NCBI GenBank assembly: GCA_038087875.1
Contig: CM075993.1
Span: 11,596,001-11,660,000, forward strand
Source: Malacoraja senta
Taxonomy: Eukaryota
Direction of reading: 5' to 3'
Length of the DNA stretch: 64,000 nt
The notes under the pieces were generated by a model. That model saw only the letters and a program-made list of their open reading frames with translations. It was not told the origin of the DNA and made no database searches. Below are positions 628 to 53,550 of this stretch, piece after piece; position 1 is the stretch's first letter, and each line of letters opens with the position of its first letter. Both the position numbers and the translations under genes were made by a program.

Positions 628-749
628 TTCATTGTTCATACTGAAGAAGGGTTTCGGCCCGAAACGTTGCCTATTTCCTTCGCTCCATAGATGCTGCTGC
701 ACCCGCTGAGTTTCTCCAGCATTTTTGTGTACCTTCACTGTTCATACTG
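628..749 (+). mobile_element. Hammerhead-only Penelope-derived mini-insertion with target-site duplication, inside an older minus-strand Penelope 3' remnant
   Basis: CTGAAGAAGGGTTTCGGCCCGAAACGTT at 641-668 plus the pLTR tail. Flanked by TTCA(T/C)TGTTCATACTG at 628-643 and 734-749. Confidence 0.75.
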
Positions 750-5891: not shown

Positions 5892-8092
5892 ACTTTTGCT
5901 CAAATATTTAATGTTTGCAGTCTCTTTGTTGACACCTCTCCAGGTCTTTTCAGATGAATTGTTTTTCTCAGTTACTTATGCTTCATTTTACTTTCTAATT
6001 CAAGGGCATAATGTAGTTGGAGCCTTCATTATTTAACTGGTAGGAGTACGGCTGAGTACATTATCTGTGAATCCAGCCCTAACGATCAGAAGGCTCAAAC
6101 TTTGGTCAGCAACTGGAGTTGAGTAGTCTGAATTCTGCCACAGTAGCAGTGGGACCCCAGCTTTAATGTCATTGGACTAGGAAGCTTTGAAAACAGGAAA
6201 AGAGAAGCAAAGGCAGTCAAACCAGCAAAAAGAGATTTGAAGATAACGGCAGGACACTAATTATAATTTTGGTAGGAAGATTTACTATTGATACATCACA
6301 GTCATGGGGTGGTAGATTGTCTAGACTTCACTGTTTGACATGGGATTGAAGAAAAGTTCATCTTCAATTTATTCCCACTCTGATTGAACTGTTGGGGGTT
6401 CTGACAGGGTTGGCATTTTTGAAGTATTGTATTAAGCACTGAACATTACCTACAGTCACAGCTTTGAGAAAACTAATGGATCAATTAATTTAGACTAGGC
6501 AGTTATTAGCAATTTAATGTCATTTCCGGTTCTATAATGCACCCCTGGTTCAAAGTCAGGAATATGTGCAATTAAAACTGTGCCACTTTACTAGTTTTGT
6601 GAGAAAATAATACAATTATACAATTAACCTTCTTGATGGATTTCAGAACATAGCAATTACCATGGACAGCAAAATTCATTTGATTAGTACCCAAGGATAA
6701 TTAAATGTTACATTTCGACAACTCCGCCTTTTAAAAATTTTATGCCAAAATATAATCTGAATATTTGTATAAAGATCATTGTATTGGTTGCATTTTTAAT
6801 CACTCAATATATATTCTAGCATATATCAATCAATGTCAACACCAAGCATTTTTATGACAGGGTTGCTGCCACTGTCAGATTAAACAATGGTTGCACTAAA
6901 GTGTGACAAAGAAACAAAGTAACACTTAAAAAACAAAACACTTTTTTACCATTAGTGTTTTAGCATTACCATATTAATTTTTTTCACAGCCTCAGCCATT
7001 CTAACTTGCGTAGCATTTATGGTCAACAAGTTAGTTAATTTGCTCAAGATTTTTCTTTTCACGATAGACTTTAAAAAAAAAGATTGCTTTAGATCTTTTG
7101 CTATTGATTGAATTTCATTTACCCTCAAGATCATGATTCAGATTTAAGTCAGCAACATAATATTTGATTATTAATGCTAAGGAGCAATTAATCCACTGAA
7201 GTAAAGTAAAATGTTGTAAATGTACTGTTTATTTGAAATTCAGGGTTGTACAAAATAAATTTCCAGCCCTTCAGACATCAACCACAGTTTATTAATAGTA
7301 ACAATAAGTCACCAGCACCCTTCCCCAAGTGAATGCTGTTGTATTGGCAGATTACTAATATATTGGCACCAAACATCGATAGACATGTTCTAGAAACTAA
7401 ACCTTATCCTCATTTTTATCACAGGTTGCAGGAGCCAAGCTGCTGATCTATTGACAAAGGCTGCAGTGAAAGCCTCAAGCCCCAACAAAATTCACATGGA
7501 AAGTGCACAGCTCACAGTTAGAATCTTAGGTCCTGAATTTTCTCCAGTTGCGTTTCATTAAAATGATATATAACACGTGTAATATTGTTAATACATAAAG
7601 TTTCTCGGAAATAATAGGAACTGACTTCTGCCAGGAGTTATGTTGTACAATACTAGCACCACTCTGCCTTGGGTGGCCAGTACATGTAAAACTCAGCATT
7701 GCTCAGCCTTCCTTTGCAAGCAATTGCTAATTTGTGGACTTGCACCGTTATTTCTGCTGCAGCAGTTGGACCAAAATTGTTGTGTGGATGACCCAATAGT
7801 AGGGTGATTCTTAATGAAACTAACTTTTTCCCAACTCTGGGAACCAATGAATTAACAATAAAAACTATATAACCTCAGAAGTTTCTAATTTGTTTTAATA
7901 GTCTCTAATACAACATCTCACATTTTGACAGTTCATTCTTTCTAATATTGCCACTAACAGGGCTGTCACAATGTAAATCAGTACCTTACACCTTATGATG
8001 TGAAAATAAGTTGAGAGTATTGTAATAGTATGTCCACTGGGCATTCTCTTGCCTCTAATTCTTTTGGACAATCAAATAATCCATAGAGAGGA

Positions 8093-8675
8093 AGCTGGAG
8101 AAACTCAGCGGGTGAGGCAGCATCTATGGAGCGAAGGAATAGGCGACGTTTCGGGTCGAGACCCTTCTTCAGGCTGATGTCGGGGGGGGGCGGGAAAAAG
8201 AAAGGAAGAGGCGGAGACAGTGGGCTGTGGGAGAACTGGGAAGGGGAGGGGGAGGAGAAAGAAAGCAAGGACTACATTAAATTGTAGGTCAATGTTCATA
8301 CCGCTGGGGTGTAAACTACCCAAGCGAAATATGAGGTGCTGTTCCTCCAATTTGCGGTGGGACTCACTCTGGCCATGGAGGAGGTCCAGGACAGAGAGGT
8401 CAGATTTGGAATGGGAGAGGGAGTTAAAGTGCTGAGCCACCGGGAGATCAGGTTGGTTCTTGTGAACTGAGTGGAGGTGTTTGCAAAGCGATCGCCAAGC
8501 CTGCGCTTGGTCTCACTGATGTAGAGCAGTTGACACCTGGAACAGCGGATGCAATAGATGAGGTTGGAGGAGGTGCACGCGAACTTCTGCCTCACCTGGA
8601 AAGACTGCTTGGGTCCTTGGATGGAGTCGAGGGGGGAGGTAAAGCGACAAGTGAAGCATTTCCTGCGGTTGCAAG
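8093..8675 (-). mobile_element. Penelope-like element 3' fragment (GIY-YIG region plus hammerhead-bearing 3' end), frameshifted
   Basis: CNRRKCFTC...NLIYCIRCSRCQLLYISETKRRLGDRF, then AQHFNS...RKLEEQHLIFRLGSLHPSGMN in another frame. Confidence 0.9.
8145..8172 (-). ncRNA. Minimal type I hammerhead ribozyme motif
   Basis: Minus strand reads CTGAAGA-A-GGGT(CTCG)ACCC-GAAAC-GTC; core intact. Confidence 0.7.
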
Positions 8676-17624: not shown

Positions 17625-17867
17625 GGCTTGTTGGGGAGCACTTCTGGTCCAGTGATCACAATACCATTAGTTTCAATATAATTATGGAGAGGGTCAGAAC
17701 TGGACCTAGGGTTGAGATTTTTGATTGGAGAAAGGCTAACTTTGAGGAGATGCGAAAGGATTTAAAAGGAGTGAATTGGGACGTGTTGTTTTATGGGAAG
17801 GATGTAGAAGAGAAATGGAGGACATTTAAAGGTGAAATTTTAAGAGTACAGAATCTTTATGTCCCTG
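17625..17867 (+). pseudogene. CR1 ORF2 fragment (end of endonuclease region), interrupted by the Penelope element
   Basis: GEHFWSSDHNTISFNI...FDWRKANFEEMRKDL. Confidence 0.85.
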
Positions 17868-17933
17868 GTACACAAAAAAATGCTGGAGAAACTCAGCGGG
17901 TGCAGCAGCATCTATGGAGCGAAGGAAATAGGT

Positions 17934-17961
17934 AACGTTTCGGGCCGAAACCCTTCTTCAG
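17934..17961 (-). ncRNA. Minimal type I hammerhead ribozyme motif in the Penelope 3' pLTR
   Basis: CTGAAGA-A-GGGT(TTCG)GCCC-GAAAC-GTT on the element's sense strand, about 115 nt after the stop codon. Confidence 0.72.
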
Positions 17962-18077
17962 ACTGATAGGGGGTGGGGAGAAGAAAGGAAAAAAGGAAAA
18001 GGAGGAGGAGGAGCCCGAGGGTTGGGGGAGGGGAGGAGACAACCAGATGGCTGATGAAGGGGAGGGGACAGCCAGGG

Positions 18078-20537
18078 CTAGCAGAATTGGGAGAATTCAA
18101 CGTTCAGGCCACCAGGGTGTAGACTGCCCAAGCGGAATATGAGGTGCATTTCCTCCAATTTACGGTGTTGCTCGCTGTGGCCATGGAGGAGACCCAGGAC
18201 AGAGAGGTCAGATACGGAATGGGAGGGGGAGTTGAAGTGCTGAGCCACCGGGAGTTCAGGTTGGTTATTGCGGACCGACCGGAGGTGTTCGGCGAAACGA
18301 TCGCCAAGCCTCCGCTTGGTCTCACCGATGTAGATCAGCTGGCATCTAGAGCAGCGAATGCAATAGATGAGGTTGGAGGAGATGCAGGTGAACCTCTGTC
18401 GCACCTGGAACGACTGCTTGGGTCCTGGAATGGAGTGGAGGGGGGAAGTGAAGGGACAAGTGTTGCATCTCTTGCGGTTGCAAGGGAAAGTACCAGGGGA
18501 GGGGGTGGTATGGGAGGGAAGGGAAGAATTGACAAGGGAGTTACGGAGGGAGCGGTCTTTGCGGAAGGCAGACATAGGGGGAGATGGGAAGATGTGGCGA
18601 GTGGTGGGGTCACGTTGGAGGTGGCGAAACTGACGGAGGATCACTTGTTGTATGTGACGGCTGGTGGGGTGAAAGGTGAGGACTAGGGGGACTCTGCCTT
18701 TGTTGTGAGTGGGGGGATGGGGAGAGAGAGCAGTGTTGCGGGGTATGGCAGAGACCCTGGTGCGAGCCTCATCTATGGTGGAGGAGGGGAACCCCCGTTC
18801 CCTGAAGAATGAGGACATTTCAGATGCCCTGGTGTGGAACGCCTCATCCTGGGAGCAGATGCGGCGTAGACGGAGGAATTGGGAGTGGGGGATGGAGTCC
18901 TTACAGGAAGCAGGGTGGGAAGAAGTGTAGTCCAGATAGCCATGGGAGTCGGTAGGTTTGTAGTGGATGTCGGTAAGGAGTCTATCACCTGCGATGGAGA
19001 TAGTGAGGTCAAGGAATGGTAGGGAAGTGTCGGAAATGGTCCAGGTGTATTTAAGTGCCGGATGGAAGTTGGTGGTGAAGCGGATGAAGTCAGTCAGTTG
19101 TGTGTGGGTGCAGGATGTGGCACCAAAACAATCATCGATGTAGCGGAGGTAGAGGTCGGGGATGGGGCCCTGGTACGCATTGAACAGGGATTGTTCTACG
19201 TACCCGACAAAGAGGCAGGCGTAGCTGGGGCCCATGCGTGTGCCCATAGCTACGCCTTGTATTTGGAGGAAATGGGAGGAGTCGAATGAAAAGTTATTAA
19301 GTGTAAGTACCAGCTCCGCTAGGCGGAGGAGGGTGTCAGTGGCCGGGTATAGATTGCTTCTACGGTCGAGGAAAAAACGGAGGGCTTTGAGACCATCCTG
19401 GTGGGGGATGGAGGTGTACAGTGACTGGACGTCCATGGTGAAGATGAGGGGGTGAGGGCCTAGAGAGTGGAATGCGCGGAGATGACGGAGAGTGTCTGAG
19501 GTGTCTTGAACATAGGTGGGGAGGGATTTAACCAAGGGGGATAGTATGGAGTCGAGGTAGGTGGAGATGAGTTCGGTGGGGCACGAACAGGCAGAGACAA
19601 TGGGTCTACCGGGACAGTCAGGTTTGTGGATTTTGGGGAGAAGGTAAAAGCGGGCTGTGCGGGGCTGGGGAACGATGAGGTTGGAGGCTCGTTCGGGCAG
19701 GGCGTGGGAGTGGATGAAGTTGGTGATGGTGCTGGAGATGGTGGCCTGGTGCTCGTCAGTGGGGTCATGGTCCAGGGGTAAGTAGGAAGAGGTGTCCGAG
19801 AGTTGGCGCGTGGCCTCAGCTTTGTAGAGGTCGACGCGCCAGACTACCACGGCACCTCCCTTGTCGGCGGGTTTGATAACCCAATCTAGGTTGTTGCGGA
19901 GTGAGTCGATGGCAGTGCGTTCAAGGGGGGAGAGATTGGAGTGAGACAGGGGAGTGGAGAAGTTGAGGCGGTGGATGTCACGGCGGCAGTTTTTAATAAA
20001 GAGTTCTAAAGCCGGAAGGCTGCGAGGGGGGTTCCATGAGGATGGGGTGCGTTGGAGACTGGAAAAGGGGTCATCAGTGGGGAGCGAGGACTGCTTCCCA
20101 TGGAAGTGAGCTGTGAGGCGGAGGCGACGGTAGAAGCGTTCCAAGTCATGGAGGGCACGGAACTCATTGAGATGGGGACGGAGGGGGACAAAGGTAAGAC
20201 CTCTGCTGAGGACAGACCGTTCGATGTCGGAGAGGGGGAGGTCGGGGGGGATGGTGAACACCCGGCAGGGATGGGGGTTGGGGCCGGAGGAAGGCAGGTG
20301 GGTGTAATGGGGACGAGGCGATGTGTGGTGGGGGGGTGGTGGGTGGTCAGGGGGTGGGGGGGTGAGAGGGCAGTGGTGTGGGTGTGGAAGAGAAGTGGTC
20401 CCATAGTTGGAGAGGGATGGGGAAGAATCAGTGGAACTGCCACTGAGATAACCAGGGCTAGGCAGACTAGCGCTAGGACCCAGTGGAGTCAAACCCCGGA
20501 GAGTGGGAGTGAACAGCGTGGAGGCTTCAGGCCCAGC
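18078..20537 (-). CDS. Penelope-like reverse transcriptase with C-terminal GIY-YIG endonuclease (5'-truncated, no native ATG)
   Basis: RT motifs IKPADKGG, YLLPKIHK, GRPIVS, MDVQSLYTSIP, GVAMG, YLRYIDD, LPFLD. Cys linker CNRKRCNTC. NLIYCIRCSRCQLIYIGETKRRLGDRFAEH. The frame is open upstream of the TTG at 20492 up to the junction. Confidence 0.93.
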   Translation of the reverse strand, partial: AGPEASTLFTPTLRGLTPLGPSASLPSPGYLSGSSTDSSPSLSNYGTTSLPHPHHCPLTPPPPDHPPPPHHTSPRPHYTHLPSSGPNPHPCRVFTIPPDLPLSDIERSVLSRGLTFVPLRPHLNEFRALHDLERFYRRLRLTAHFHGKQSSLPTDDPFSSLQRTPSSWNPPRSLPALELFIKNCRRDIHRLNFSTPLSHSNLSPLERTAIDSLRNNLDWVIKPADKGGAVVVWRVDLYKAEATRQLSDTSSYLPLDHDPTDEHQATISSTITNFIHSHALPERASNLIVPQPRTARFYLLPKIHKPDCPGRPIVSACSCPTELISTYLDSILSPLVKSLPTYVQDTSDTLRHLRAFHSLGPHPLIFTMDVQSLYTSIPHQDGLKALRFFLDRRSNLYPATDTLLRLAELVLTLNNFSFDSSHFLQIQGVAMGTRMGPSYACLFVGYVEQSLFNAYQGPIPDLYLRYIDDCFGATSCTHTQLTDFIRFTTNFHPALKYTWTISDTSLPFLDLTISIAGDRLLTDIHYKPTDSHGYLDYTSSHPASCKDSIPHSQFLRLRRICSQDEAFHTRASEMSSFFRERGFPSSTIDEARTRVSAIPRNTALSPHPPTHNKGRVPLVLTFHPTSRHIQQVILRQFRHLQRDPTTRHIFPSPPMSAFRKDRSLRNSLVNSSLPSHTTPSPGTFPCNRKRCNTCPFTSPLHSIPGPKQSFQVRQRFTCISSNLIYCIRCSRCQLIYIGETKRRLGDRFAEHLRSVRNNQPELPVAQHFNSPSHSVSDLSVLGLLHGHSEQHRKLEEMHLIFRLGSLHPGGLNVEFSQFC

Positions 20538-20591: not shown

Positions 20592-20928
20592 CTGCGGTTA
20601 CTGCTGGAACTGCAGATGCTGGAAAATCGAAGGTAGACAAAAGTGCTGGAGAAACTCAGCGGGTGCAGCTGCACCCACTGAGTTTCTCCAGCACTTTTGT
20701 CTACCTTCGAATTTCCAGCATCAGCAGTTCCTTCTTAAACACTTTGTCTACTCCACTGCGAAATCTCCTCAAGGTATGCCTACTTTGAAGAAGTTCTCCT
20801 CCTCCCTCCGAAGACAGATTTCTGAAGAAGGGTTTCTGCCCGAAACGTTACCTATTTCCTTCGCTCCATAGATGCTGCTGCACCCGCTGAGTTTCTCCAA
20901 CACTTTTGTCTACCTGCGGTTACTGCTG
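20592..20928 (+). mobile_element. 307 bp non-autonomous Penelope derivative with 15 bp TSD, 5' fold-back, tandem pLTR tail and hammerhead
   Basis: CTGCGGTTACTGCTG at 20592-20606 and 20914-20928. Hammerhead core at 20822-20849. Confidence 0.8.
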
Positions 20929-21780: not shown

Positions 21781-24264
21781 GAAAAGTTACAAAAGACTCC
21801 CGAATTAAATGGAAGGAAATTTCAAGAAGGGATAAGAGAATAAGGTCAGGGCCAATTGCGAGCGGTGCGAGAGGGGAGGTGAATACCGAGGTCAAAGTGT
21901 TGTATGTGAATGCGCGAACTATAAGAAATAAAGTGGACGAGCTTGAGGCTCAGTTTGAAATTGGCAAGTATGATATTGTAGAAATTACTGAGACATGGCT
22001 GCAAGAGGGCCAGGGCTGGGAACTGAATATTCAATCTTATAAATCCTATCGAAAAGACAGGCAGGTGGGCAGAGGGGGTGGGGTAGCTCTGTTCGTGAGG
22101 AATGAAATTCAGTCCCTTAAAAGGGGTGACATTGAAACAAGAGATGTGGAGTCAGTATGGATAGAACTAAGGAATTGTAAGGGTAAAAAGACCCTAATGG
22201 GACTAATCTACAGGCCCCCAAACAGTAGCCTGGATATAGGGTGCAAGTTGAATCAGGAGTTAAAATTGGCATGTAGTAAAGGTAATGGTATGGTTGTTAT
22301 GGGAGATTTCAACATGCAGGTAGACTGGGAAAATTAGGTTGGTACTGGACCCCAAGAAAGGGACTTTGTGGAGTGCCTCTGTGATGGATTCTTAGAGCAC
22401 CTTCTATTGGAGCCTACCAGGGTGAAGGCAATTCTGGATTTAGTGTTATGTAATGAACCGGATTTGATAAAGGAACTTGATGTTAATGAGCCATTAGGAG
22501 GTAGTGACCATAATATGGTCAAGTTAATTGGAAACTTAATTGGAGAGGGAGAAGGGTAGATCGGAGGTGTCAGTGTTACAGTTGAATAAAGGGGACTATG
22601 GAGACATGAGGGAGGAGCTGGCCAAAATTGACTGGAAAGATACCCTAGCAGGGATGACAGTGGAACAACAATGGCAGGTATTTCTGGGAATAATACAGAA
22701 GGTGCAGGATCAGTTAATTCCAAAGAGGAAGAAACATTCCAAGGGCAGTAAGGGGCGACCACGGCTGACAAGGGACGTCAGGGACAGTATAAAAATAAAA
22801 GAGAAGAAGTACAACTTTGCAAAGATGAGCGGGAAGCAAGAGGATTGGGTAATGTTTAAAGAACAACAGAAGATAACTAAAAAGACAATACGGGGAGAAA
22901 AGATGAGGTACGTAGGTAAGCTAGCCAAGAATATAAAGCAGGATAGTAAAAGCTTCTTTAGGTATGTGAAGAGAAAAAATTAGTTAAGACCAAAGTTGGA
23001 CCCTTGAAGACCGAAAATGGTGAATTTATTATGGGGAACAAGGAAATGGCAGATGAGCTGAACAGGTACTTTGGATCTGTCTTCACTAAGGAAGACACAA
23101 ACAATCTTCCTGATATAGTAGTGGCCAGAGGATCTGGGGTGACAGAGGAACTGAAGGAAATCCACATTAGGCAGGAAATGGTGTTGGGTAGACTGATGGG
23201 ACTGAAGGCTGATAAATCCCCAGGGCCTGATGGTCTGCATCCCAAGGTACTTAAGGAAGTGCCTCTAGAAATCATGGACGCATTGGTGATAATTTCCCAA
23301 TGTTCTATAAATTCAGGATCAGTTCCTGTGGATTGGAGGGTAGCTAATGTTATCCCACTTTTTAAGAAAGGCGGTAGAGAGAAAACAGGGAATTATAGAC
23401 CAGTCAGCCTGACATCGGTGGTGGGGAAGATGCTGGAGTCAATTATAAATGATGAAATAGGGACACATTTGGATAGCAGTAACAGGATCGGTCGGAGTCA
23501 GCATGGATTTACGAAGGGGAAATCATGCTTAACTAATCTTCTGGAATTTTTGTGGATGTAACTAGGAAAATGGACAAGGGAGAGCGAGTGGATGTAGTGT
23601 ACCTGGACTCTCAAAAAGCATTTGATAAGGTCCCACATAGGAGATTAGTGGGAAAAATTAGGGCACATGGTATTGGGGGTAGTGCTGACATGGATAGAAA
23701 ATTGGTAGGCAGACAGGAAACAAAGAGTAGGGATTAACATTTCAGAATGGCAGGCAGTGACTAGTGGGGTACCGCAAGGCTCGGTGCTGGGACCGCAGCT
23801 ATTTACAATATACATCAATGATTTAGATGAATGGATTCAAAGTAACATTAGCAAATTTGTAGATGACACAAAGCTGGGTGGCAGTGTGAACTGTGAGGAG
23901 GATGCTATGAGAATGCAGGGTGCCTTGGACAGGTTGGGTGACTTGGACAGGATGCAGTTTAATGTGGATAAATGTGAGGTTATCCACTTTGGTAGCAAAA
24001 ACAGGAAGGCAGATTATTATCTAAATGGTGTCAAGTTGGGAAAAGGGGACGTACAACAGGATGTGGGGGTCCTTGTTCATCAGTCAATGAAAGTAAGCTT
24101 GCAGGTACAGCAGGCAGTGAAGAAAGCAAATGGTAGGTTGGCCTTCATAACAAGAGGAGTTGAGTATAGGAGCAAAGAGGTTCTTCTGCAGTTGTATAGG
24201 GCCCTAGTGAGACCACACCTGGAGTATTGTGTGCAGTTTTGGTCTCCAAATTTGAGGAAGGATA
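21781..24264 (+). pseudogene. CR1 LINE ORF2 (APE endonuclease + RT) with stops and frameshifts; 3' end cut by a Helitron-like sequence
   Basis: [58 protein letters not shown]. Confidence 0.93.
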
Positions 24265-25020
24265 TCTATATAACTAAAAGTCTCATCTTGACCACTTCCT
24301 GTCTGCACTGTATATTGATTTTAGAAACAACGCTACTATATATCGCTATGATTTTGGCCATCTTATTCACAGTCCTCCTCCACTGAGGCAGCCCCGAGGA
24401 TTTTTCCGATCGATGAAAAATAAAAAAGTTATGAATGTTTAAAGAATCTTGAGATTAGCTGATTGGTCCTCTCGCCTGTCAATCATCATGATAAATGTAA
24501 CGCCCCTTCCGGGGGGCCACGAGTATAAAGCCCCGGAGGCTGGACGTGAGTCCGACACCCTGGAAAACTGTGAGTGAGAGTTGAGCCCAGAACTGTGAGC
24601 CGTGAAATGAAATGAATTGGTAGCCTGCACTCTGCTTGAAATGGTATGAAGTTAATTTGATAGCCTGCACTCTGCTTGTAATGGTATGAAATGAATTTGG
24701 TGGCCTGCACTCTGCTTGAAATGGTATGAAATGAATTTGAGTTTGGTGGCCTGCACTCTGCTTGAAATGGTATGAATGTATTTGAATTTGGTGGCCTGCA
24801 CTCTGCTTGAAATGGAATAAAATTGAATGTGAATTTGGTGGCCTGCACTCTGCTTGAAATGGAATGAAATTGAATTTGAATTTGGTGGCCTGCACTCTGC
24901 TTGAAATGGAATGAAATGAATTTGAATTTGGTGGCCTGCACTCTGCTTGAAATGCTATGAAATGAATTTGAATTTGGTGGCCTGCACTCTGCTTGAAATG
25001 GAATGAAATTGAATTTTCCC
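24265..25020 (+). mobile_element. Helitron-like non-autonomous element, 5' part
   Basis: Starts TCTATATAACTAAAAG right after an A, at a position where other CR1 copies read A^T. Contains an internal minisatellite. No 3' CTRR end found. Confidence 0.55.
24603..25015 (+). repeat. Minisatellite, 9 units of ~40-47 bp
   Basis: Constant core GCCTGCACTCTGCTTG(A)AATG separated by variable GAAAT/GAATTT linkers. Confidence 0.92.
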
Positions 25021-26769: not shown

Positions 26770-26972
26770 TATTTACAGTAGACAAAAATGCTGGAGAAAC
26801 TCAGCGGGTGAGGCAGCATCTATGGAGAGAAGGAATAGGTGACGTTTCGGACCCGAAACGTCACCTATTCCTTCGCTCCATAGATGCTGCCTCACCCGCT
26901 GAGTTTCTCCAGCATTTTTGTCTACCTTCGATTTTTCCAGCATCTGCAGTTCCTTCTTAATTATTAACAGTA
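26770..26972. mobile_element. Near-perfect 73 bp-arm palindrome built from the Penelope pLTR, with 11 bp TSD
   Basis: Arms 26778-26850 and 26853-26925 (one mismatch). TAT(T/T)(T/A)ACAGTA flanks: TATTTACAGTA at 26770-26780 and TATTAACAGTA at 26962-26972. Confidence 0.85.
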
Positions 26973-27020: not shown

Positions 27021-27202
27021 CCTATTTGTGTAGAAAGGAACTGCAGATGCTGGTTTAAACCGAAGATAGATACAAAACCCTGGAGTAACTCAGCGGGACA
27101 GGCAGCATCTCTGGAGAGAAGGAATGGGTGACGTTTCAGGTCAAGACCCTTCTTCAGACCTGTCCCGCTGATTACTCCAGCTTTTTGTCTATACCTATTT
27201 GT
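27021..27202 (-). mobile_element. Fold-back hammerhead mini-element with 9 bp TSD
   Basis: CCTATTTGT at 27021-27029 and 27194-27202. Mutated core at ~27130-27157. Confidence 0.75.
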
Positions 27203-27973: not shown

Positions 27974-28709
27974 ATCTGTACACTGTAAATGGTTCTATTG
28001 TAATCATGTATTATCTTTCCACTGACTGGATAGCACGCAACAAGAGCTTTTCACTGTACCTCGGTACACGTGACAATAAACTAAACTGAACAAGAGACTA
28101 CGCGGTCTATACCAAATCTTCCCTGTATTTACCATGGATAAGGACATGCAAGTAACTAAGGTCAGGGGATGGAACAGTGACACTATGGAGCATGCCAACT
28201 TTACAAAGGAGGGGGCCTGGGAGGTCCTGAAACACATCAAGGGTGACTTCCCAGGGGCCTGACCAAATATCTCCAAGGATGTCATGGGAAACAAGAGAAA
28301 GCTTTCTGACTGTCTTGCAGAGATATCCATCTTTAATAGTTACTGGTGAGGTACTGGAATATTGGCGGGTGGCCGATGTTGTATCTTTATTCAAGAAGGG
28401 CAAGAAGGACAAGTCAGGGAACTACAGGCTGAGCCTAACATCAGAAGTGGAAGTGATATTGGAAGTTCTTCTGAGACACAGGGATTTACCTATATTTTAA
28501 AAGGCAAAGACTGATGGGAGATGGTCAGCATGGCTCTGTGCATGGGAAATCATTTCTCACAAATTGGTGTTTTTTGAAATGGTGACCAAATGGATTTCCA
28601 AAGGCAGAGCAATGGACTCTGATTCAGTGATTCAATGATTCTTTATTGTCACATGTACCGAGGTACTGAGACATTCTTTGTTTTGCATCCAATACACAAG
28701 TACACAAGT

Positions 28710-29995
28710 TCTGGAATTTTTTGAGGATGTGACAAGTAAAATGGATGAAGGGGTGCCAGTGGATGTAGTGTATCTAGACTTTCAGAAAGCCTTTGATAAG
28801 GTCCCGCACGGGAGACTGGTGACTAAAATTAGAGCACATGGTATTGGGGGTAGGGTGTTGACGTGGATAGAAAATTGGTTGGCAGACCGGAAGCAAAGAG
28901 TAGGAGTGAACAGGTCCTTTTCAGAATGGCAGGCAGTGGCGAGTGGAGTGCCGCAAGGCTCGGTGTTGGGGCCGCAACTGTTTACCATATATATTAATGA
29001 TTTGGAAGAGGGAATTAGGAGCAACACTAGCAAGTTTGCGGATGACACAAAGCTGGGTGGCAGTGTGAACTGTGAAGATGATGTTAGGAGTTTGCAAGGT
29101 GACCTGGACGGATTGAGTGAGTGGGCAGATGCGTGGCAGATGCAGTATAATATAGATAAATGTGAGGTTATCCATTTTGGCGGCAAAAACAAGGGGGCAG
29201 ATTATTATCTCAATGGGGTTAGGTTAGGTAAGGGGGAGGTACAGCGAGACCTGGGTGTCCTTGTACACCGTTCACTGAAAGTTGGCGTGCAGGTACAGCA
29301 GGCAGTGAAGAAAGCTAATGGAATGTTGGCCTTCATAACAAGAGGATTTCAGTATAGGAGTAAAGAGGTTCTTCTGCAGTTGTATAGGGCTCTGGTGAGA
29401 CCACATCTGGAGTATTGTGTACAGTTTTGGTCTCCTAATTTGAGGAAGGACATCCTTGTGATTGAAGCAGTGCAGCGTAGGTTCACGAGATTGATCCCTG
29501 GTATGGCGGGACTGTCATATGAGGAAAGATTGAAAAGACTAGGCTTGTATTCACTGGAGTTTAGAAGGATGAGGGAGGATCTTATAGAAACATATAAAAT
29601 TATAAAAGGACTGGACAAGCTAGATGTAGGAAATATGTTCCCAATGTTGGGCAAGTCCAGAACCAGGGGCCACAGTCTTAGAATAAAAGGGAGGTCATTT
29701 AAGACTGAGGTGAGAAAAAACATTTTCACCCAAAAAAAAAAAAAGAAAAAACATTTTCACCCAGAGATTGTGAATTTATGGAATTCCCTGCCACAGAGGG
29801 CAGTGGAGGATAAAATCACTGGATGGGTTTAAGAGAGAGTTAGATAGAGCTCTAGGGGCTAGTGGAGTCAAGGGATATGGGGAGAAGGCAGGCACGGGTT
29901 ATTGATAGGGGACGATCAGCCATGATCACAATGAATGGTGGTGCTGGCTCGAAGGGCTGAATGGCCTCCTCCTGCACCTATTTTCTATGTTTCTA
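28710..29995 (+). mobile_element. Young 5'-truncated CR1 LINE (RT C-terminal half to 3' tail)
   Basis: [41 protein letters not shown]. Tail TTTTCTATGTTTCTA. Frame broken only by the poly(A) insert at ~29733. Confidence 0.95.
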
Positions 29996-42709: not shown

Positions 42710-45700
42710 GTTATTTAAGAAGGAACTGCAGATGCTGGATAATCGAAGGTAGACAAAAACGCTGGAGAAACTCAGAGGGTGAGGCAGCATCTATGGAGAG
42801 AAGACGTTTCGGGTCGAGACCCTTCTTCAGACTGATGTGGGGGTGGGGGGGGCGGGAAGAAGAAAGGAAGAGGCATAGACAGTGGGCTGTGGAAGAGCTG
42901 GGAAGGGGAGGGGAAAGAAGGAGAAAGCAGGGACTACCTGAAATTGGAGAAGTCAATGTTCATACCGCTGGGGTGTAAACTACCCAAGCGAAATATGAGG
43001 TGTTGCACCTCCAATTTATGGTGGGCCTCATTATGGCCATGGAGGAGGCCGAGGACAGAAAGGTCAGATTCGGAATGGGAGGGGGAGTTGAAGTGCTGAG
43101 CCACCGGGAGATCAGGTTGGTTATTATGAACCGAGCGAAGGTGTTGGGCAAAGCGATCGCCAAGCCTGCGCTTGGTCTCACCGATGTAGAGCAGCTGACA
43201 TCTAGAGCAGCGTATGTAATAGATGAGGATGGAGGAGATGCAGGTGAACCTCTGCCGCACCTGGAAAGACTGCTTGGGTCCTTGAATGGAGTCAAGGGGG
43301 GAGGTAAAGCGAAAAGTGTAGTATTTCCTGCGGTTGCAAGGGAAAGTGCCAGGAGAGGGGGTGGTTTGGGTGGGAAGGGACAAATAGACCAGGGAGTTAT
43401 GGAGGGAACGGTCTCTGTGGAAAGCCGAAGATGTAAAGAGGAGATGGGAAGATGTGGCAAGTGGTGGGGTCACGTTGCAGGTGGCGAAAATGGCGGAGGA
43501 TTATTTGTTGTATGTGGCGGCTGGTGGGTTGGAAGGTGAGGACAAGGGGGATGGGAAGTGAGAGCAGAGTTACGGGGTATAGAATAGACCCTGGTGAGAG
43601 CCTCATCTATAGTAGAAGAGGCGAACCACCGTCCCCTAAATAATGAGGACATCTCTGATGCCCTGGTTTGGAACACCTCATCCTGGGTACAGATGCAGCG
43701 TAAACGGAGGAATTGGAAATAGGGGCTGGAGTCCTTACAGGAAGCAGGGTGGGAAGAAGTGTAGTCCAGATAGCCATGGGAGTGAGTGGGATTCTAGTAG
43801 ATGTCGGTCAGTAGTCTATCACCTGCGTTAGAGATAATGAGGTCCAGAAACGGTAAGGTGATGTCGGAAATGGTCCAGGTGTATTTGAGTGCCGGATGGA
43901 AGTTAATGGAGGTGAAATGGATGAAGTCAGTGAGTTCTGTATGGGTGCAGGAGGTCCTTTTCACAATGGCAGGCCGTGACCAGTGGGGTACCACAAGGCT
44001 CAGTGCTGGGACCCCAGCTATTTACAATATATATTAATGATTTGGACGAGGGAATTGAATGCAACATCTCCAAGTTTGCGGATGACACAAAGCTGGGGGG
44101 CAGTGTTAGCTGTGAGGAGGGTGCTTGGAGGCTGCAAGGTGACTTGGATAGGCTGGGTGAGTGGGCAAATGCGTGGCAGATGCAGTATAATGTGGATAAA
44201 TGTGAGGTTATCCACTTTGGTGGCAAAAACAGGAAAGTAGACTATTATCTGAATGGTGGCCGATTAGGAAAAGGGGAGATGCAACGAGACCTGGGTGTCA
44301 TGGTACACCAGTCATTGAAAGTAGGCATGCAGGTGCAGCAGGCAGTGAAGAAAGCGAATGGTATGTTAGCATTCATAGCAAAAGGATTTGAGTATAGGAG
44401 CAGGGAGGTTCTACTGCAGTTGTACATGGTCTTGGTGAGACCACACCTGGAGTATTGCGTACAGTTTTGGTCTCCTACTCTGAGGAAGGACATTGTTGCC
44501 ATAGAGGGAGTACAGAGAAGGTTCACCAGACTGATTCCTGGGATGTCAGGACTTTCATATGAAGAAAGGCTGGATAGACTCGGCTTGTACTCGCTAGAAT
44601 TTAGAAGATTGAGGGGGGATCTTATAGAAACTTACAAAATTCTTAAGGGGTTGGACAGGCTAGATGCAGGAAGATTGTTCCTGATGTTGGGGAAGTTCAG
44701 AACAAGGGGTCACAGTTTAAGGATAAGGGGGAAATCTTTTAGGACCGAGATGAGAAAAACATTTTTCACACAGAGAGTGGTGAATCTCTGGAATTCTCTG
44801 GCACAGAATGTAGTTGAGGCCAGTTCATTGGCTATATTTAAGAGGGAGTTAGATGTGGCCCTTGTGGCTAAAGGGATCAGGGGGTATGGAGAGAAGGCAG
44901 GTACAGGATACTGAGTTAGATGATCAGCCATGATCATATTGAATGGCGGTGCAGGCTCGAAGGGCCAAATGGCCTACTCCTGCACCTATTTTCTATGTTT
45001 CTATGTTTCTATGTAGCACCAATGCAATTGTCGATGTAGCGGAGGTAGAGTTGGGGGATAACCATATAACCATATATAACCATATAACCATAACAGCACG
45101 GAAACAGGCCATCTCGGCCCTTCAAGTCCGTGCCGAACATTTTTTGTTCCACTCTACGTCTCGAACAAAGATTGTTCGACGTACCCTACAAAGAGGCAGG
45201 CATAGCTTGGGCCCATGCGCGTGCCCATAGCTACGCCTTTTATTTGGAGGAAATGGGAGGTCAAACGAAAAGTTGTTAAAGATAAGGACCAGCTCCACTA
45301 GGTAGAGGAGAGTATCAGTAGATGGGGATTGGTTGGTTCTCCGGTCGAGGAAGAAACGGAGGGCTTTAAGACCCTCCTGGTGGGGGATGGAGGTTTAGAG
45401 TGAAGATGGTGGGAATGGGGGGGGCCTGGAAAACGGAAGTCATGGAGGAGACGAAGAGCGTGTGAGGTGTCTTGAACATAGGTAGGGAGGGATTTAACCA
45501 GGATGGAGTCGAGGTATGTGGAAATAGGTTCGGTAGGACACGAACAGGCAGAAACAATGGGTCTACCAGGACAGTCAGGTTTGCAGATTTTGGGGAGAAG
45601 GTAAAATCGGGCCGTGCGGGGCTGGGGAACGATGAGGTTGGAGGCTCGGGAGGACAGGGAGCCGGAGTTAATGAAGTCAGTGATGGTGCTAGAGATGGTG

Positions 45701-47899: not shown

Positions 47900-49538
47900 A
47901 GAAACATAGAAACATAGAAACGTAGAAAATAGGTGCAGGAGTAGGCCATTCGGCCCTTCGAGCCTGCACCGCCATTCAATATGATCATGGCTGATCATCC
48001 AACTCAGTATCCCGTACCTGCCTTCTCTCCATACCCCCTGATCCCTTTAGCCACAAGGGCCACATCTAACTTAAATATAGCCAATGAACTGGCCTCGACT
48101 ACCCTCTGTGGCAGAGAGTTCCAGAGATTCACCACTCTCTGTGTGAAAAAAGTTCTTCTCATCTCGGTTTTAAAGGATTTCCCCCTTATCCTTAAGCTGT
48201 GACCCCTTGTCCTGGACTTCCCCAACATCGGGAGCAATCTTCCTGCATCTAGCCTGTCCAACCCCTTAAGAATTTTGTAAGTTTCTATAAGATCCCCTCT
48301 CAATCTCCTAAATTCTAGAGAGTATAAACCAAGTCTATCCAGTCTTTCTTCATATGAAAGTCCTGACATCCCAGGAATCAGTCTGGTGAACCTTCTCTGC
48401 ACTCCCTCTATGGCTATAATGTCCTTCCTCAGATTTGGAGACCAAAATTGTACGCAATACTCCAGGTGTGGTCTCACCAAGACCCTGTACAACTGCAGTA
48501 GAACCTCCCTGCTCCTATACTCAAATCCTCTTGCTATGAAGGCCAACATACCATTCGCTTTCTTCACTGCCTGCTGCACCTGCATGCCTACTTTCAATGA
48601 CTGGTGTACCATGACACCCAGGTCTCGCTGCACCTCCCCATTTCCTAATCGGCCACCATTTAGATAATAGTCTGCCTTCCCGTTTTGCCACCAAAGTGGA
48701 TAACCTCACATTTATCCACATCATACTGCATCTGCCAAACATTTGCCCACTCACCCCGCCTATCCAAGTCACCTTGCAGTCTCCTAGCATCCTCCTCACA
48801 GCTAACACTGCCCCCCAGCTTAGTGTCATCCGCAAACTTGGAGATGTTGCTTTCAATTCCCTCGTCCAGATCATTAATATAAATTGTAAATAGCTGGGGT
48901 CCCAGCACTGAGCCTTGCGGTACCCCACTAGTCACTGCCTGCCATTGTGAAAAGGACCCGTTTACTCCTACTCTTTGCTTCCTGTTTGCCAGCCAGTTCT
49001 CTATCCACATCAATACTGAACCCCCAATACCGTGTGATTTAAATTTGTATCCTAATCTCTTATGTGGTACCTTGTCGAAAGCCTTCTGAAAGTCCAGATA
49101 CACCACATCCACTGGTTCTCCCCTATCCACTCTACTAGTTACATCCTCGAAAAATTCTATAAGATTCGTCAGACACGATTTACCTTTCGTAAATCCATGC
49201 TGACTTTGTCCAATGATTTCACCACTTTCCAAATGTGCTGCTATCCCATCTTTAATAACTGACTCTAGCAGTTTCCCCACTACCGATGTTAGACTAACTG
49301 GTCTGTCATTCCCCGTTTCCTCTCTCCCTCCCTTCTTAAAAAGTGGGGTTACGTTTGCTACCCTCCAATCCTCAGGAACTACTCCAGAATCTAAAGAATT
49401 TTGAAAAATTATCACTAATGCATCCACTATTTCTGGAGCTACTTCCTTAAGTACTCTGGGATGCAGCCTATCTGGCCCTGGTGATTTATCGGCCTTTAAT
49501 CCATTCAATTTACCCAACACCACTTCCCGACTAACCTG
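47900..49538 (-). mobile_element. Young 5'-truncated CR1 LINE (RT domain), nested in an older plus-strand HER1-like LINE (~47465-47899 / 49539-49860)
   Basis: [31 protein letters not shown]. Host rejoins as GAGGAGTGAT|CTTATAGAG. Confidence 0.93.
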
Positions 49539-49959
49539 GATCTTATAGAGTTGTATAAAATCATGAGAGGAATAGATCGGGTAGTTGCACAGAGTCTCTT
49601 GCTCAGAGTACCAGAGGACATAGTTTTAGGTGAAGGGGGAAAGATTTAATACAAATCTGAGAGGTAACCGTTTCATGCATAGGGTGGTGAGTGTATGTTA
49701 TGAGCTGCGAGATGAAGTCGTTGAGGCAGGGACTATCCCAACGTTTAAGAAACATTTAGACAGGTACATGGATAGGACAGGTATAGAGGGATGTGGGCCA
49801 AATGCGGGCAGGTGGGACATGTGTACGTGAGACATGTTGGCCGGCGTGGGCAAGTTGGCATATAAGGGATTGTGGGGAGGGGGGGTGGGGGTAGGGAGGG
49901 TTGATGGAACTGGATAGGAAAAGGGGGAGAGGTGAAGAAAGTAAAGGGGGAGAGAGAAA

Positions 49960-50180
49960 ATAGATACAAAGTGTTGGAGTGTCTCAGCAGGTCAGGCAGC
50001 AGATCTAGAGAACTTGGATAGATGACGTTTTGGGTCGGGACCCGTCTTCAGAATGGAGAATGGTCCCAACCTAAAATGTCACCTATCCTTGTTCTCCAGA
50101 GGTGCTGCCTGACCCACTGAGTTACTCCAGCAATTTGTGCTTTTCTTTGTAAATCACCATCTGCAGGTCCTTGTATCTAC
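49960..50180. mobile_element. Old fold-back hammerhead/pLTR pair
   Basis: Minus unit at ~49960-50052 and plus unit at ~50056-50180, both degenerate. Confidence 0.65.
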
Positions 50181-50854
50181 ACTAAAGGAGAGAGGGAAAA
50201 CCTGGGATGGAGCAGTGGGGTTTGGAGAATTTAATGTTCAAACCATTGGCTGCAAACTACCTGGACGGGATGAATAGAACATTGAACATGGAACAGGACA
50301 GCACAGGAACAGGCCCTTCAGCCCATAATGTCCATGTTGTACAGGATGCCAGGTGGAACTAATCTCCTCTGCCTGCACGTGATTCATATCCCTCCATATC
50401 CATGCACCTGTCTCGTATATGCCTCAATTCTTCATTGTACAGCTTGTGTTTGGCCTCACCCTGGCAGTGGAGAATTTCGAGGACAGAGAGGTTGGTGTAG
50501 GAGTGGGGATGGGAGTTGGAGTGACCTGAAACCGAGAGTTTAAGATGGACGTTTGTGGACAGAGGGCAGACGCTGAACAAAATGGTGGCCTAGTTTACAC
50601 TTGGTCTCACAGATATGACCATATGAATGAAGGAATGAATGAACACTTTATTGTCACAGTGAAATTCTTTGCTTGCATACCCAAGGAGATTGTGGCCACC
50701 AGATGTAGTAGATCAGGTTGGAGCAGGTGAACTTCTGCCTCACCAGGAAGACTTTAGACTTTAGAGATACAGCGCAGAAACAGGCCCTTCGGCCGACTGA
50801 GTCCAGGCCGATCGGCGATCCCCACACACTAGCATTATCCTACAAACCTTTACA

Positions 50855-52175
50855 ATTGGTCTGCCATGTCCTTGTTCCCCATGATCAATTCACCTGTTTC
50901 TGACTGCAAGGGACCTACATTTGTTTTAACTTATCTCTTTCTCTTCACATATCTATAAAAACATTTGCAGTCAGTTTTTATGTTCCCTGCCAGTTTTCTT
51001 TCATAATCTATTTTCCCTTTCCTAATTAAGCCCTTTGTCCTCCTCTGCTGGACTCTGAATTTCTCCCAGTCCTCTGGTAGGCTGCTTTTTCTGGCTAATT
51101 TGTATGCTTCATCTTTTGTTTTGAAACTATCCCTGATTTCCCTTGTTATCCACGGATGCACTACCTTCCCTGATTTATTCTTTTGCCAAACTGGGATGAA
51201 CAATTGTTGTAGTTCATCCATGCAATCTTTAAATGCCTTCCATTGCATATCCACCGTCAACCCTTTAAGAATCAATTGCCAGTCAATCTTGGCCAATTCA
51301 CGTTTCATACCCTCAAAGTTACCTTTCTTTAAGTTCAGAACCCTTGTTTCTGAATTAACAATGTCACTCTCCATCCTAATGAAGAACTCAACCATATTAT
51401 GGTTACTCTTGCCCAAGGGGCCACGCACAACAAGACTGCTAACTAACCCTTCCTCATTACTCAATACCCAGTCTAGAATAACCTGCTCTCTCGTTGGTTC
51501 CTCTACATGTTGGTTTAGATAACTATCCCTCATACATTCCAAGAAATCCTCTTCCTCAGTACCCCTGCCAATTTGATTCACCCAATCTATATGTAGATTG
51601 AAGTCACCCATTATAACTGTTTTACCTTTGTTGCACGCATTTCTAATTTCCTGTTTAATGCCATCCCCAACTCCACTACTACTGTTAGGTGGCCTGTACA
51701 CAACTCCCACTAGCGTTTTCTGCCCCTTAGTGTTTCGCAGCTCTAACCATATCGATTCCACATCCTCAAAGCTAATGTCCTTCCTTTCCATTGCGTTAAT
51801 CTCCTCTCTGACCAGCAACGCTACCCCACCTCCTTTTCCTTTCTGTCTATCCCTCCTGAATATTGAATATCCCTGGATGTTCAGCTCCCAGCCTTGGTCA
51901 CCCTGGAGCCATGTCCCCGTGATCCCAACTATATCATAATCATTAATAGCTACCTGCACATTCAACTCATCCACCTTATTACGAATGCTCCTTGCATTGA
52001 GACACAAAGCCTTCAGGCTTGTTTTTACAACGCTCTTACCCCTTATACAATTATGTTGAAAAGTGGCCCTTTTTGATTTTTGCCCTGGATTTGTCTGCCT
52101 GCCACGTTTACTTTTCACCTTGCTACCTATTGCTTCCGCCCGCATTTTACACCCTCTGTCTCTCTGCTCACACAT
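50855..52175 (-). pseudogene. CR1 ORF2 N-terminal part (APE endonuclease), 3'-truncated
   Basis: LNARSIRNK, YRPP, MGDFN, LDWVL, SNH (for SDH). Stop at 50931; homology ends at ~50855. Confidence 0.9.
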
Positions 52176-52322
52176 TTAAGAAACCCACCACCTCTTATTC
52201 TCTGTTTATAATTTTTTTCTTCTTTATCCCCTACCTGTCGGGTCTGGGTGCTTCCCTTCTCTGCCTCCTGCCTCACACACTGTCTATTAGCTTTCTCTAT
52301 TTGAGTCCCTCCCCCAACCGTT

Positions 52323-53258
52323 CTAGTTTAAAGTCTCCGCAGTAGCCTTTGCAAATCTCCCCGCCAGGATATTGGTCCCCCTCGGGTTCAAGTGCAACCC
52401 GTCCTTTTTGTACAGGTCACACCTTCCACAAAAGAGGTCCCAATGATCCAGAAACTTGAATCCATACCCACTGCACCAGTCCTTCAGCCACGCATTTATC
52501 CTCCACCTCGCTCCATTCCTACTCTCACTGTCGCGTGGCACAGGCAGTAATCCCGAGGTTGTTACCTTTGCGGTCCTGCTCCTTAACTCTCTTCCTAACT
52601 CCCTAAATTCTCCTTTCAGGACCTCTTCCCTTTTTCTACCTATGTCATTGGTACCTATATGTACCACGACCTCGGGCTCCTCTCCCTCCCATTTCAGGAT
52701 ATCTTGGACACGTTCAGACACATCCCAGACCCTGGCACCAGGGAGGGAAACTACTATCCGGGTCTCCTGACTGCATCCACAGAATCGCCTGTCTGACTCC
52801 CTAACTATAGAGTCCCCTATTACTACTTCCCTCCTCTTCTTTTCCTTACCCTTCTGAGCAACAGTGCCGGTCTCTGTACCGGAGGCCCGGCCGCTGTCGC
52901 TACCCCCAGGTAGGCTGTCCCCCCCAACAGTACTCAAACAGGAGTACTTATTGTCAAGGTGTACAGCCACCGGGGTACTCTCTAGTCCCTGCCTCTGCCC
53001 CTTGCCTCTCCTAACCGTGACCAACCTGCCTGCCTCCTGTGGTCTTGGAGTGACCACCTCTCTATAACTCCTCTCTATGACTTCCTCACTCTCCCTGACC
53101 AGACGGAGGTCATCGAGCTGCTGCTCCAGGTTCCTAATAAGGTCCCTTAGGAGCCCCATCTCAATGCACCTGGCGCAGATGTGGACGTCTGGAAGGCTAT
53201 CAGATTCCTTGACCTCCCACATCTGACATCCAGAACAGTAAACTGCCCTGGGCCTCAT
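52323..53258 (-). CDS. CR1 ORF1 protein (Zn-finger/leucine zipper plus SGNH-esterase-like domain), 311 aa
   Basis: CSGC...CARC, heptad leucines, GDSIVR, HIGTND, DGLHLN. Likely ATG at 53258; frame intact. Confidence 0.9.
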   Translation of the reverse strand: MRPRAVYCSGCQMWEVKESDSLPDVHICARCIEMGLLRDLIRNLEQQLDDLRLVRESEEVIERSYREVVTPRPQEAGRLVTVRRGKGQRQGLESTPVAVHLDNKYSCLSTVGGDSLPGGSDSGRASGTETGTVAQKGKEKKRREVVIGDSIVRESDRRFCGCSQETRIVVSLPGARVWDVSERVQDILKWEGEEPEVVVHIGTNDIGRKREEVLKGEFRELGRELRSRTAKVTTSGLLPVPRDSESRNGARWRINAWLKDWCSGYGFKFLDHWDLFCGRCDLYKKDGLHLNPRGTNILAGRFAKATAETLN

Positions 53259-53550
53259 ACTCCTCCTGTACCTAGGATACAATACATCTGTCATCCAGAA
53301 CAGTAAACTGCCCTGGCCCTCATACTCCTCCTGTACCTAGGATACAACACAAATACAATACAATACAATACAAAGTGCTGGAAGAAATCAGCAGGGATCT
53401 GACTCCCAACAGCTGCTTCCTCTAGTCCACTTCCACCAATCAGCGGCTTCCTCAAGCCCACTTGTTTTGAACTGTAAACTGCGACTGGAACGTTACCGAT
53501 TTGGGCTACTCCTCCCTCACCAACAGCTCCAACGGCTCCCGGGCCTCTGT

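Follow-up and report, generated by a model that had tools for sequence, protein, structure and literature searches.

We find that the motif at positions 17932 to 17963 (minus strand) of the window, the whole 64,000-nt stretch of Malacoraja senta DNA analysed here, is by its sequence a minimal type I hammerhead of Penelope-like elements (PLEs), lying in the pseudo-LTR (pLTR) of a young Neptune-like element. The interpretation that we consider probable is that this pLTR belongs to a recently mobile PLE whose RNA starts at the front edge of the hammerhead, with run-off stubs, a mostly uncut template and a weak, conditional ribozyme. The hammerhead class and its link to PLEs are already published (PMC4209133).

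The focal motif and its host element

The features of the motif and of the adjoining element are as follows; parts of the motif were read from the sequence.

17932-17963, minus strand: minimal type I hammerhead (sequence, strict pattern and copy table)
17963-17962 (G17963-U17962), minus strand: stem I, 5' strand
17961-17955, minus strand: box CUGAAGA (C3 = 17961)
17954, minus strand: extra A
17953-17950 and 17945-17942, minus strand: stem II, with a UUCG loop
17941-17938, minus strand: GAAA box (G12 = 17941)
17938-17935, minus strand: ACGU palindrome (stem III remnant)
17934, minus strand: H17 (U); predicted cut between 17934 and 17933
17933-17932, minus strand: stem I, 3' strand; 2 bp only
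17867-17931, minus strand: pLTR segment 3' of the hammerhead, to the proximal element 3' end
17964-18077, minus strand: 3' UTR or upstream part of the pLTR, pyrimidine-rich, with TCAG just 5' of the core
18078-20536, minus strand: 5'-truncated PLE ORF, ~819-822 of 1,238 aa (frame and domain scan)

The catalytic boxes CUGANGA, GAAA and UH are all present in the focal motif, which lies 116 nt 3' of the stop codon of the reverse transcriptase (RT) and GIY-YIG frame. The initial annotation had assigned it to the minimal type I hammerheads of PLEs, with ACGU as the palindrome, an assignment that the boxes, the extra A and the palindrome bear out. An Rfam scan of the window gave no match to the hammerhead models at E ≤ 5; the matches it returned were palindromes fitting miRNA models, below threshold.

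The truncated ORF carries a DKG motif, the YIDD of RT, a C-x4-C-x2-C linker and a GIY-YIG endonuclease, with domain matches (RVT_1, E = 3.9e-6; GIY-YIG, E = 8.8e-4) that are both below curated cut-offs. The copy in the window (17867-20536) has lost its 5' part; over 2,670 nt it shares 99.85% identity with the full copy L141. Its proximal 3' end lies ~+93 from C3, and the distal end ~35 nt farther (the Penelope 'tail'). A target-site duplication (TSD) of the focal element was not found in a weak search, in which the flank ended 6 nt short of the true end.

The full element unit is 3,996 bp long, with a 1,238-aa RT/GIY-YIG ORF and an identical hammerhead at both ends. The motif had been placed at the 3' end of the element; it does lie 3' of the ORF, but it is also at the 5' end, in both pLTRs of full units. 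There were 2,313 candidates in the genome for the 5' part of the ORF, 40 of which were scored and were all ~100% identical. A tandem pLTR-ORF-pLTR arrangement was seen in nine of the 20 loci targeted (L141-148, L151), each with a same-strand hammerhead ~1.4 kb 5' of a shared anchor and again 3' of the ORF. The 1,238-aa ORF is intact in L141, L144, L146 and L147, and its start lies 163 nt 3' of C3 of the preceding hammerhead.

As in EN+ PLEs, the element has a single ORF, an RT, a C-terminal GIY-YIG domain, DKG, partial-tandem pLTRs and a tail of 30-40 bp. A CX2-5CxxC linker between RT and EN is given as a Neptune/Nematis signature in the available part of PMC8557442, and the C-x4-C-x2-C linker at residue 1105 of the ORF suggests that this element is of Neptune (or Nematis) type. 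Its protein has 40,592 relatives at E ≤ 0.001, and at 1,238-1,290 aa compares with ~750-950 aa in the top relatives, the extra length being a proline-rich repeat; in L141 this repeat, of variable copy number, occupies ORF residues ~170-500. L141 also contains an upstream ORF of 41 codons (L141:2120-2245), which begins within the pLTR and runs, in another frame, across the main ATG. The context of that ATG is splice-donor-like, and translational or splicing control by these features is possible.

Copies within the window

A strict hammerhead pattern had eight matches in the window and none in 100 shuffles, and a profile (HMM) search found 33 hammerhead copies or fragments. All 22 sites named in the initial annotation fall on HMM matches, and further copies are missing from its list (for example 26209 minus, 50050 plus, 3959 minus, 11475 plus and 27899 plus). 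The cores described there as intact to degenerate are thus real copies, but their integrity is lower than was implied: the catalytic boxes are all kept in 12 of the 33 (13 if the copy at 42803, with an aligner gap, is counted), the boxes, stem II and palindrome in five, and both stem I pairs as well in three (C3 at 8172, 17961 and 27157). Individual copies and composite insertions include:

638-734, plus strand: short copy of hammerhead and tail that has lost stem I but keeps the boxes, stem II and palindrome (copy table)
8089-8177, minus strand: older-subfamily copy with the motif fully intact, 3' of an ORF remnant (copy table)
20592-20928, plus strand: separate insertion with a 15-bp TSD (20592-20606 / 20914-20928)
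26777-26927, no strand assigned: two truncated copies head-to-head, a palindrome joined at the stem II loop (profile hits)
27064-27160, minus strand: short copy, motif intact by script criteria (copy table)
42747-43266, minus strand: second subfamily; the hammerhead follows an ORF C-terminus of 84% aa identity (copy table)

The insertion at 20592-20928 consists of an inverted tail hairpin, a fragment of tail and ORF start, and the hammerhead copy at 20822, which lacks stem I. We considered whether 20606-20915 could be the end of the focal element in inverted orientation, and rejected this because the segment has its own 15-bp TSD. The hammerhead of the second subfamily has a deletion directly 3' of H17. 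Head-to-head palindromes of truncated copies occur at 20617-20719, 26799-26904 and 49960-50140, with weak Rfam miRNA-hairpin scores, and an inverted copy was found directly upstream in 45 of 240 sampled copies. The window also holds many ORF-like fragments that we presume to be LINEs (CR1/L2) at 21783-24386, 28639-29832, 43934-44914, 48004-53336 and 57100-58996, and among them what we take to be an esterase-like ORF1 (52323-53336).

Genome-wide abundance and decay

One 27-mer of the motif occurs exactly 43,259 times in the 1.94-Gb genome (control, 0). Our sample for estimating copy number comprised 120 evenly spaced, not formally random, 10-kb stretches from contigs C1-C21 (1,198,400 nt), in which the profile gave 443 matches vs none in reversed sequence. 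The 274 matches that span the core correspond to an estimated 4.4e5 core-spanning copies genome-wide (bootstrap 3.8-5.2e5), or one per 4.4 kb. Boxes, stem II and palindrome are intact in 48 of 263 aligned copies (~18%; an estimated ~7.8e4 genome-wide). The mutated fraction of the sampled copies is 28% at G12, which is a CpG site, and 17-32% over the CpG sites including G12.

Most copies decay like neutral DNA. We did not count the mismatch contrast in dispersed copies (5.2% for catalytic positions vs 8.1%) as evidence of conservation, since exact cores had served to seed the HMM and differences between subfamilies enter its tail columns. The suggestion of a very abundant ribozyme family holds for abundance, at 4.4e5 copies, but not for 4e5 working ribozymes, as only 48 of 263 are intact. 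The copying of short stubs (described below) and the neutral-like decay likewise argue against a family of that size, and the genomic copies are likely by-products of the element's copying rather than working ribozymes. In two regions of C1 (3.87-3.89 Mb and 4.008-4.030 Mb) tail matches recur every ~2.0-2.45 kb, which suggests larger tandem arrays containing the pLTR.

Pairing, covariation and predicted folding

Within the genome, the extra A between A9 and 10.1 is present in 171 of the 177 copies with a letter there. The commonest classes at pair 10.1-11.1 among 263 sampled copies are G-C (172) and G.U (44), and the varying stem II pair is U-A in 192 and U.G in 31. This last change is one-sided, so the alternation of GCCC and ACCC that had been read as retained pairing stands as a U-A/U.G wobble and not as compensatory covariation. 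The swap of the first stem I pair from U-A at 17934 to C-G at 8145 fared worse: C-G was found in 0 of 227 sampled copies, and the pair at 8145 is therefore a private change rather than a compensation. The commonest class at the third stem I pair is A.C (158 copies), and no excess of two-sided stem changes was seen among the 263 copies sampled. Several subfamilies keep the hammerhead block despite very different upstream UTRs; catalytic positions are invariant between them, and such differences as are fixed within the motif are all of a tolerated kind (the loop, U-A/U.G, and C/U at H17).

A broader comparison used 80 metagenome loci encoding relatives of the element protein (31-62% identity); locus L268 was left out of the covariation analysis because its match, inside the ORF region, was poor. 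The same hammerhead architecture occurs in 16 of these 80 distant PLE loci and has no matches in reversed controls; under a strict descriptor, the motif lies ≤300 nt downstream in 11 of the 41 loci that reach the ORF end, and two loci (L261 and L264) carry a hammerhead on both sides of the ORF. A palindrome (ACGT, ATAT or AACCGGTT) is present in all 16, as the descriptor demanded. Stem I is 3-6 bp long in these relatives vs 2 bp here. Its pair 3, which lies outside the descriptor, is paired in 16/16 with four pair types (shuffle mean 6.6; 0 of 20,000 shuffles), in a test whose shuffles ignore the relatedness of the loci. Pair 4 is paired in 12/16 and pair 5 at chance (6/16), and the covariation persists in the 13 loci left after near-duplicates were removed. 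On these alignments, true compensatory pairing is found only across distant PLE relatives and not within the genome, and the stem I compensation among the relatives argues that the focal motif is homologous to a structurally conserved hammerhead.

Folding predictions point the other way for activity. The predicted probability of stem II is 0.00-0.21 in five copies here vs >0.5 in 11 of the 16 relatives, which suggests that the ribozyme may be inactive here. In the segment 17925-17970 the hammerhead fold is unfavoured (z = 0.36; stem II probability 0.00), and inclusion of the distal tail gives a predicted fold in which the tail end is base-paired to the core (z = -2.24). In a two-chain fold, another duplex (-29.8 kcal/mol) beats an imposed stem II with intermolecular stem III (-13.3 kcal/mol). 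The monomer is predicted by these models to misfold, with its core paired away.

Copy starts and ends

If cut linear RNA were the template, copies should start at nucleotide 1.1. An exact 20-mer of the tail has 40,793 genome copies, 2,481 of which fail at the 5' strand of stem II; starts in this group are spread, with 2/30 at 1.1. A narrower search for the cut site returned 807 rows, the first 100 of which were tallied by eye, leaving 96 after four rows with deletions were dropped. Here starts at 1.1 numbered 12/96, vs 6-15 at nine neighbouring positions, and by script 5/30 loci; starts were not enriched at the predicted cut position in these rows and loci, though a slight enrichment there is possible. 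The same tally for the older family was uninformative, being dominated by one amplified composite repeat. More than half of its first 100 rows (among them L374, L386, L388, L393, L394, L398 and L400) represent this larger repeat; the hammerhead stub that it has captured is broken, lacking the 5' core and bearing ~8 additional bases where the cut is predicted. In a single case (L349, C1:31361533), three extra bases lie exactly at the predicted cut site.

A sharp boundary does exist at the front edge of the motif. Before correction, 7,915 young exact cores extended upstream (C-run present) vs 4,362 without the upstream C-run; after correction for flanks with a chance C (estimated at ~0.5), the extended and unextended groups are about equal. 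About half of the young exact cores thus start ≤8 nt from C3, most often at G2.2. Among 100 of the 4,362 rows scored by eye (the first 100, on contig C1), upstream matches of 0, 1, 2, 3, 4, 5 and 6 nt occurred in 7, 13, 41, 16, 12, 5 and 6 rows; in 30 loci scored by script they occurred in 1, 4, 10, 7, 3, 4 and 1, so that 41/100 rows and 10/30 loci start at G2.2. Older subfamilies show a similar, broader start boundary.

TSDs of at least 7 nt occur in 25 of 30 young short copies vs 62 of 870 mismatched controls; in three of the copies (L202, L206 and L219) the TSD ends directly before G2.2. At the other end, 22 of 30 insertions stop at +88 to +105 from C3 and eight at +128 to +134. Four copies (L193, L199, L208 and L209) have a short duplicate of the core's first bases directly 5' of the copy start, as if the cDNA had re-primed upon reaching G2.2.

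The peak at G2.2 fits run-off of reverse transcription from uncut RNA starting there. The TCAGT at this edge, which we take to be initiator-like, would predict a start at A, one base before the G2.2 peak, and this one-base offset counts against the proposed RNA start. None of the listed sequencing sets that contain the sequence is recorded as RNA, and all of the runs are contigs. In four contig sets guessed to be RNA, which carry no information on starts, strand or cleavage, none of the 15 joints listed (of 101) had GT..AG ends.

Proposed mechanism and alternatives

In the reading that we favour as probable, RNA of the element would start at the front edge of the hammerhead; an internal promoter in the pLTR is described for Penelope of D. 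virilis in the accessible part of PMC2377424. By analogy with the anole PLE, the element protein would nick AT-rich DNA and initiate cDNA synthesis at the tail, internally on the RNA. Synthesis that begins in the first pLTR would run off the RNA 5' end after ~95-135 nt and leave a short stub; long copies would arise when it begins in the pLTR of the following tandem unit. The template RNA would be mostly uncut, or re-joined, at the ribozyme site. With a 2-bp stem I and a core paired away in the predicted monomer fold, the hammerhead would be weak and conditional, cleaving rarely, only as a dimer or with the element protein, and trimming tandem read-through RNA to unit length. More tentatively, the short copies may be the PLE equivalent of strong-stop DNA, made from RNA that starts at the hammerhead's first paired base and then integrated, with a ~135-nt leader that, in the modelled fold, brings the tail onto the core and would keep the ribozyme off during copying. 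If this is true, hundreds of thousands of insertions record where the RNA begins as well as the two sites at which RT starts, and uncut RNA is the template in vivo.

Could the hammerhead instead be vestigial in this lineage, the block being kept as a promoter, protein-binding or RT-initiation structure with no cutting? The stem I of 2 bp, the unfavoured fold (z 0.36, stem II probability 0.00), the predicted pairing of the core with the tail end (z -2.24) and the lack of excess starts at the cut site all lean this way, as does the report that insertion in vitro was unaffected by ribozyme mutants of the anole PLE (PMC11167929, in the part available). We nevertheless regard it as unlikely, for the subfamilies do not differ at catalytic positions and such changes as they show are hammerhead-compatible, the anole motif cleaves with protein help (same source), and a helix I of 2 bp is found in D. 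virilis too (PMC4209133). In a model of Cervera and De la Pena, the ribozyme does cut and unit-length RNA is circularised, with rolling reverse transcription giving more-than-unit copies. A re-joined cut site would appear uncut in DNA copies, and tandem copies longer than one unit exist; but a circular template lacks a 5' end and so leaves the sharp start at G2.2 unexplained, and although circles could coexist with linear RNA we think this account quite improbable.

The fixed start might also derive from short non-autonomous masters beginning at G2.2, or from use of the pyrimidine tract plus CAG as a 3' splice site. The sequence 5' of the core does resemble a splice acceptor, an intron in D. 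virilis ends at the helix I 5' end (PMC4209133, as far as its text is accessible), and many copies have 4-12 extra bases between TSD and start. Yet the short copies have the same haplotypes as the autonomous subfamilies and end at both of their 3' ends, no common upstream exon is seen among them, and the TSD abuts G2.2 in L202, L206 and L219. Masters or splicing would therefore seem a doubtful source of the boundary, and we retain RNA initiation at the front edge with run-off copying as the probable one.

Comparison with known systems and significance

Minimal hammerheads (min-HHRs) in the pLTRs of the metazoan PLEs Xena, Poseidon and Neptune were described by Cervera and De la Pena (2014; PMC4209133), and the class is also reviewed in PMC6765202 and PMC6155905. 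PLE hammerheads are reported to cut poorly, only as dimers (PMC4209133) or with the element protein (PMC11167929). The motif described here resembles the min-HHR in its boxes, in the extra nucleotide between 9 and 10.1, in G10.1-C11.1, in a palindromic 15.2-16.2 without a stem III loop, and in its presence in both pLTRs and in mostly solitary dispersed copies. It differs from the Schistosoma type, with a helix I of 4-5 bp, in having a helix I of 2 bp, as does the D. virilis variant (PMC4209133). Our literature search, which left most subscription papers, Repbase and Dfam outside its scope, found no account of such motifs in cartilaginous fish and none of a fixed 5' start.

Two RT start sites are described for PAc, the Poseidon of Anolis carolinensis (Frangieh et al., 2024; PMC11167929, accessible part). 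Our element resembles PAc in its two 3' ends, its tail of ~35 nt, a hammerhead at the pLTR-ORF junction and an apparently uncut RNA template, and it is unlike PAc in its Neptune-type zinc linker. Its ORF starts 163 nt after C3, whereas that of PAc starts inside stem II, and the available text on PAc makes no mention of short copies with a fixed 5' start. Like the non-LTR retrozymes (Li et al., 2026; 10.64898/2026.07.22.740005, in the portion available), the short copies derive from a PLE, are non-coding and carry a type I hammerhead. Retrozymes, however, form tandem arrays of short units, whereas the stubs that we examined stand alone or inverted and have TSDs; in the 64-kb window hammerhead copies are dispersed or inverted, and retrozyme-style head-to-tail arrays are absent.

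Finally, the copy number here is far above that of the genomes in PMC4209133, for which the accessible text gives ~2,000 min-HHR copies in S. mansoni, ~4,000 in coelacanth and ~9,000 in X. tropicalis, with descriptors that differ from ours. The 43,259 exact and ~7.8e4 estimated intact copies are likewise well above these published per-genome figures. With intact, near-identical full-length copies and sharp boundaries, this element offers a convenient test system for the role of the hammerhead in PLEs and for the start of their RNA.
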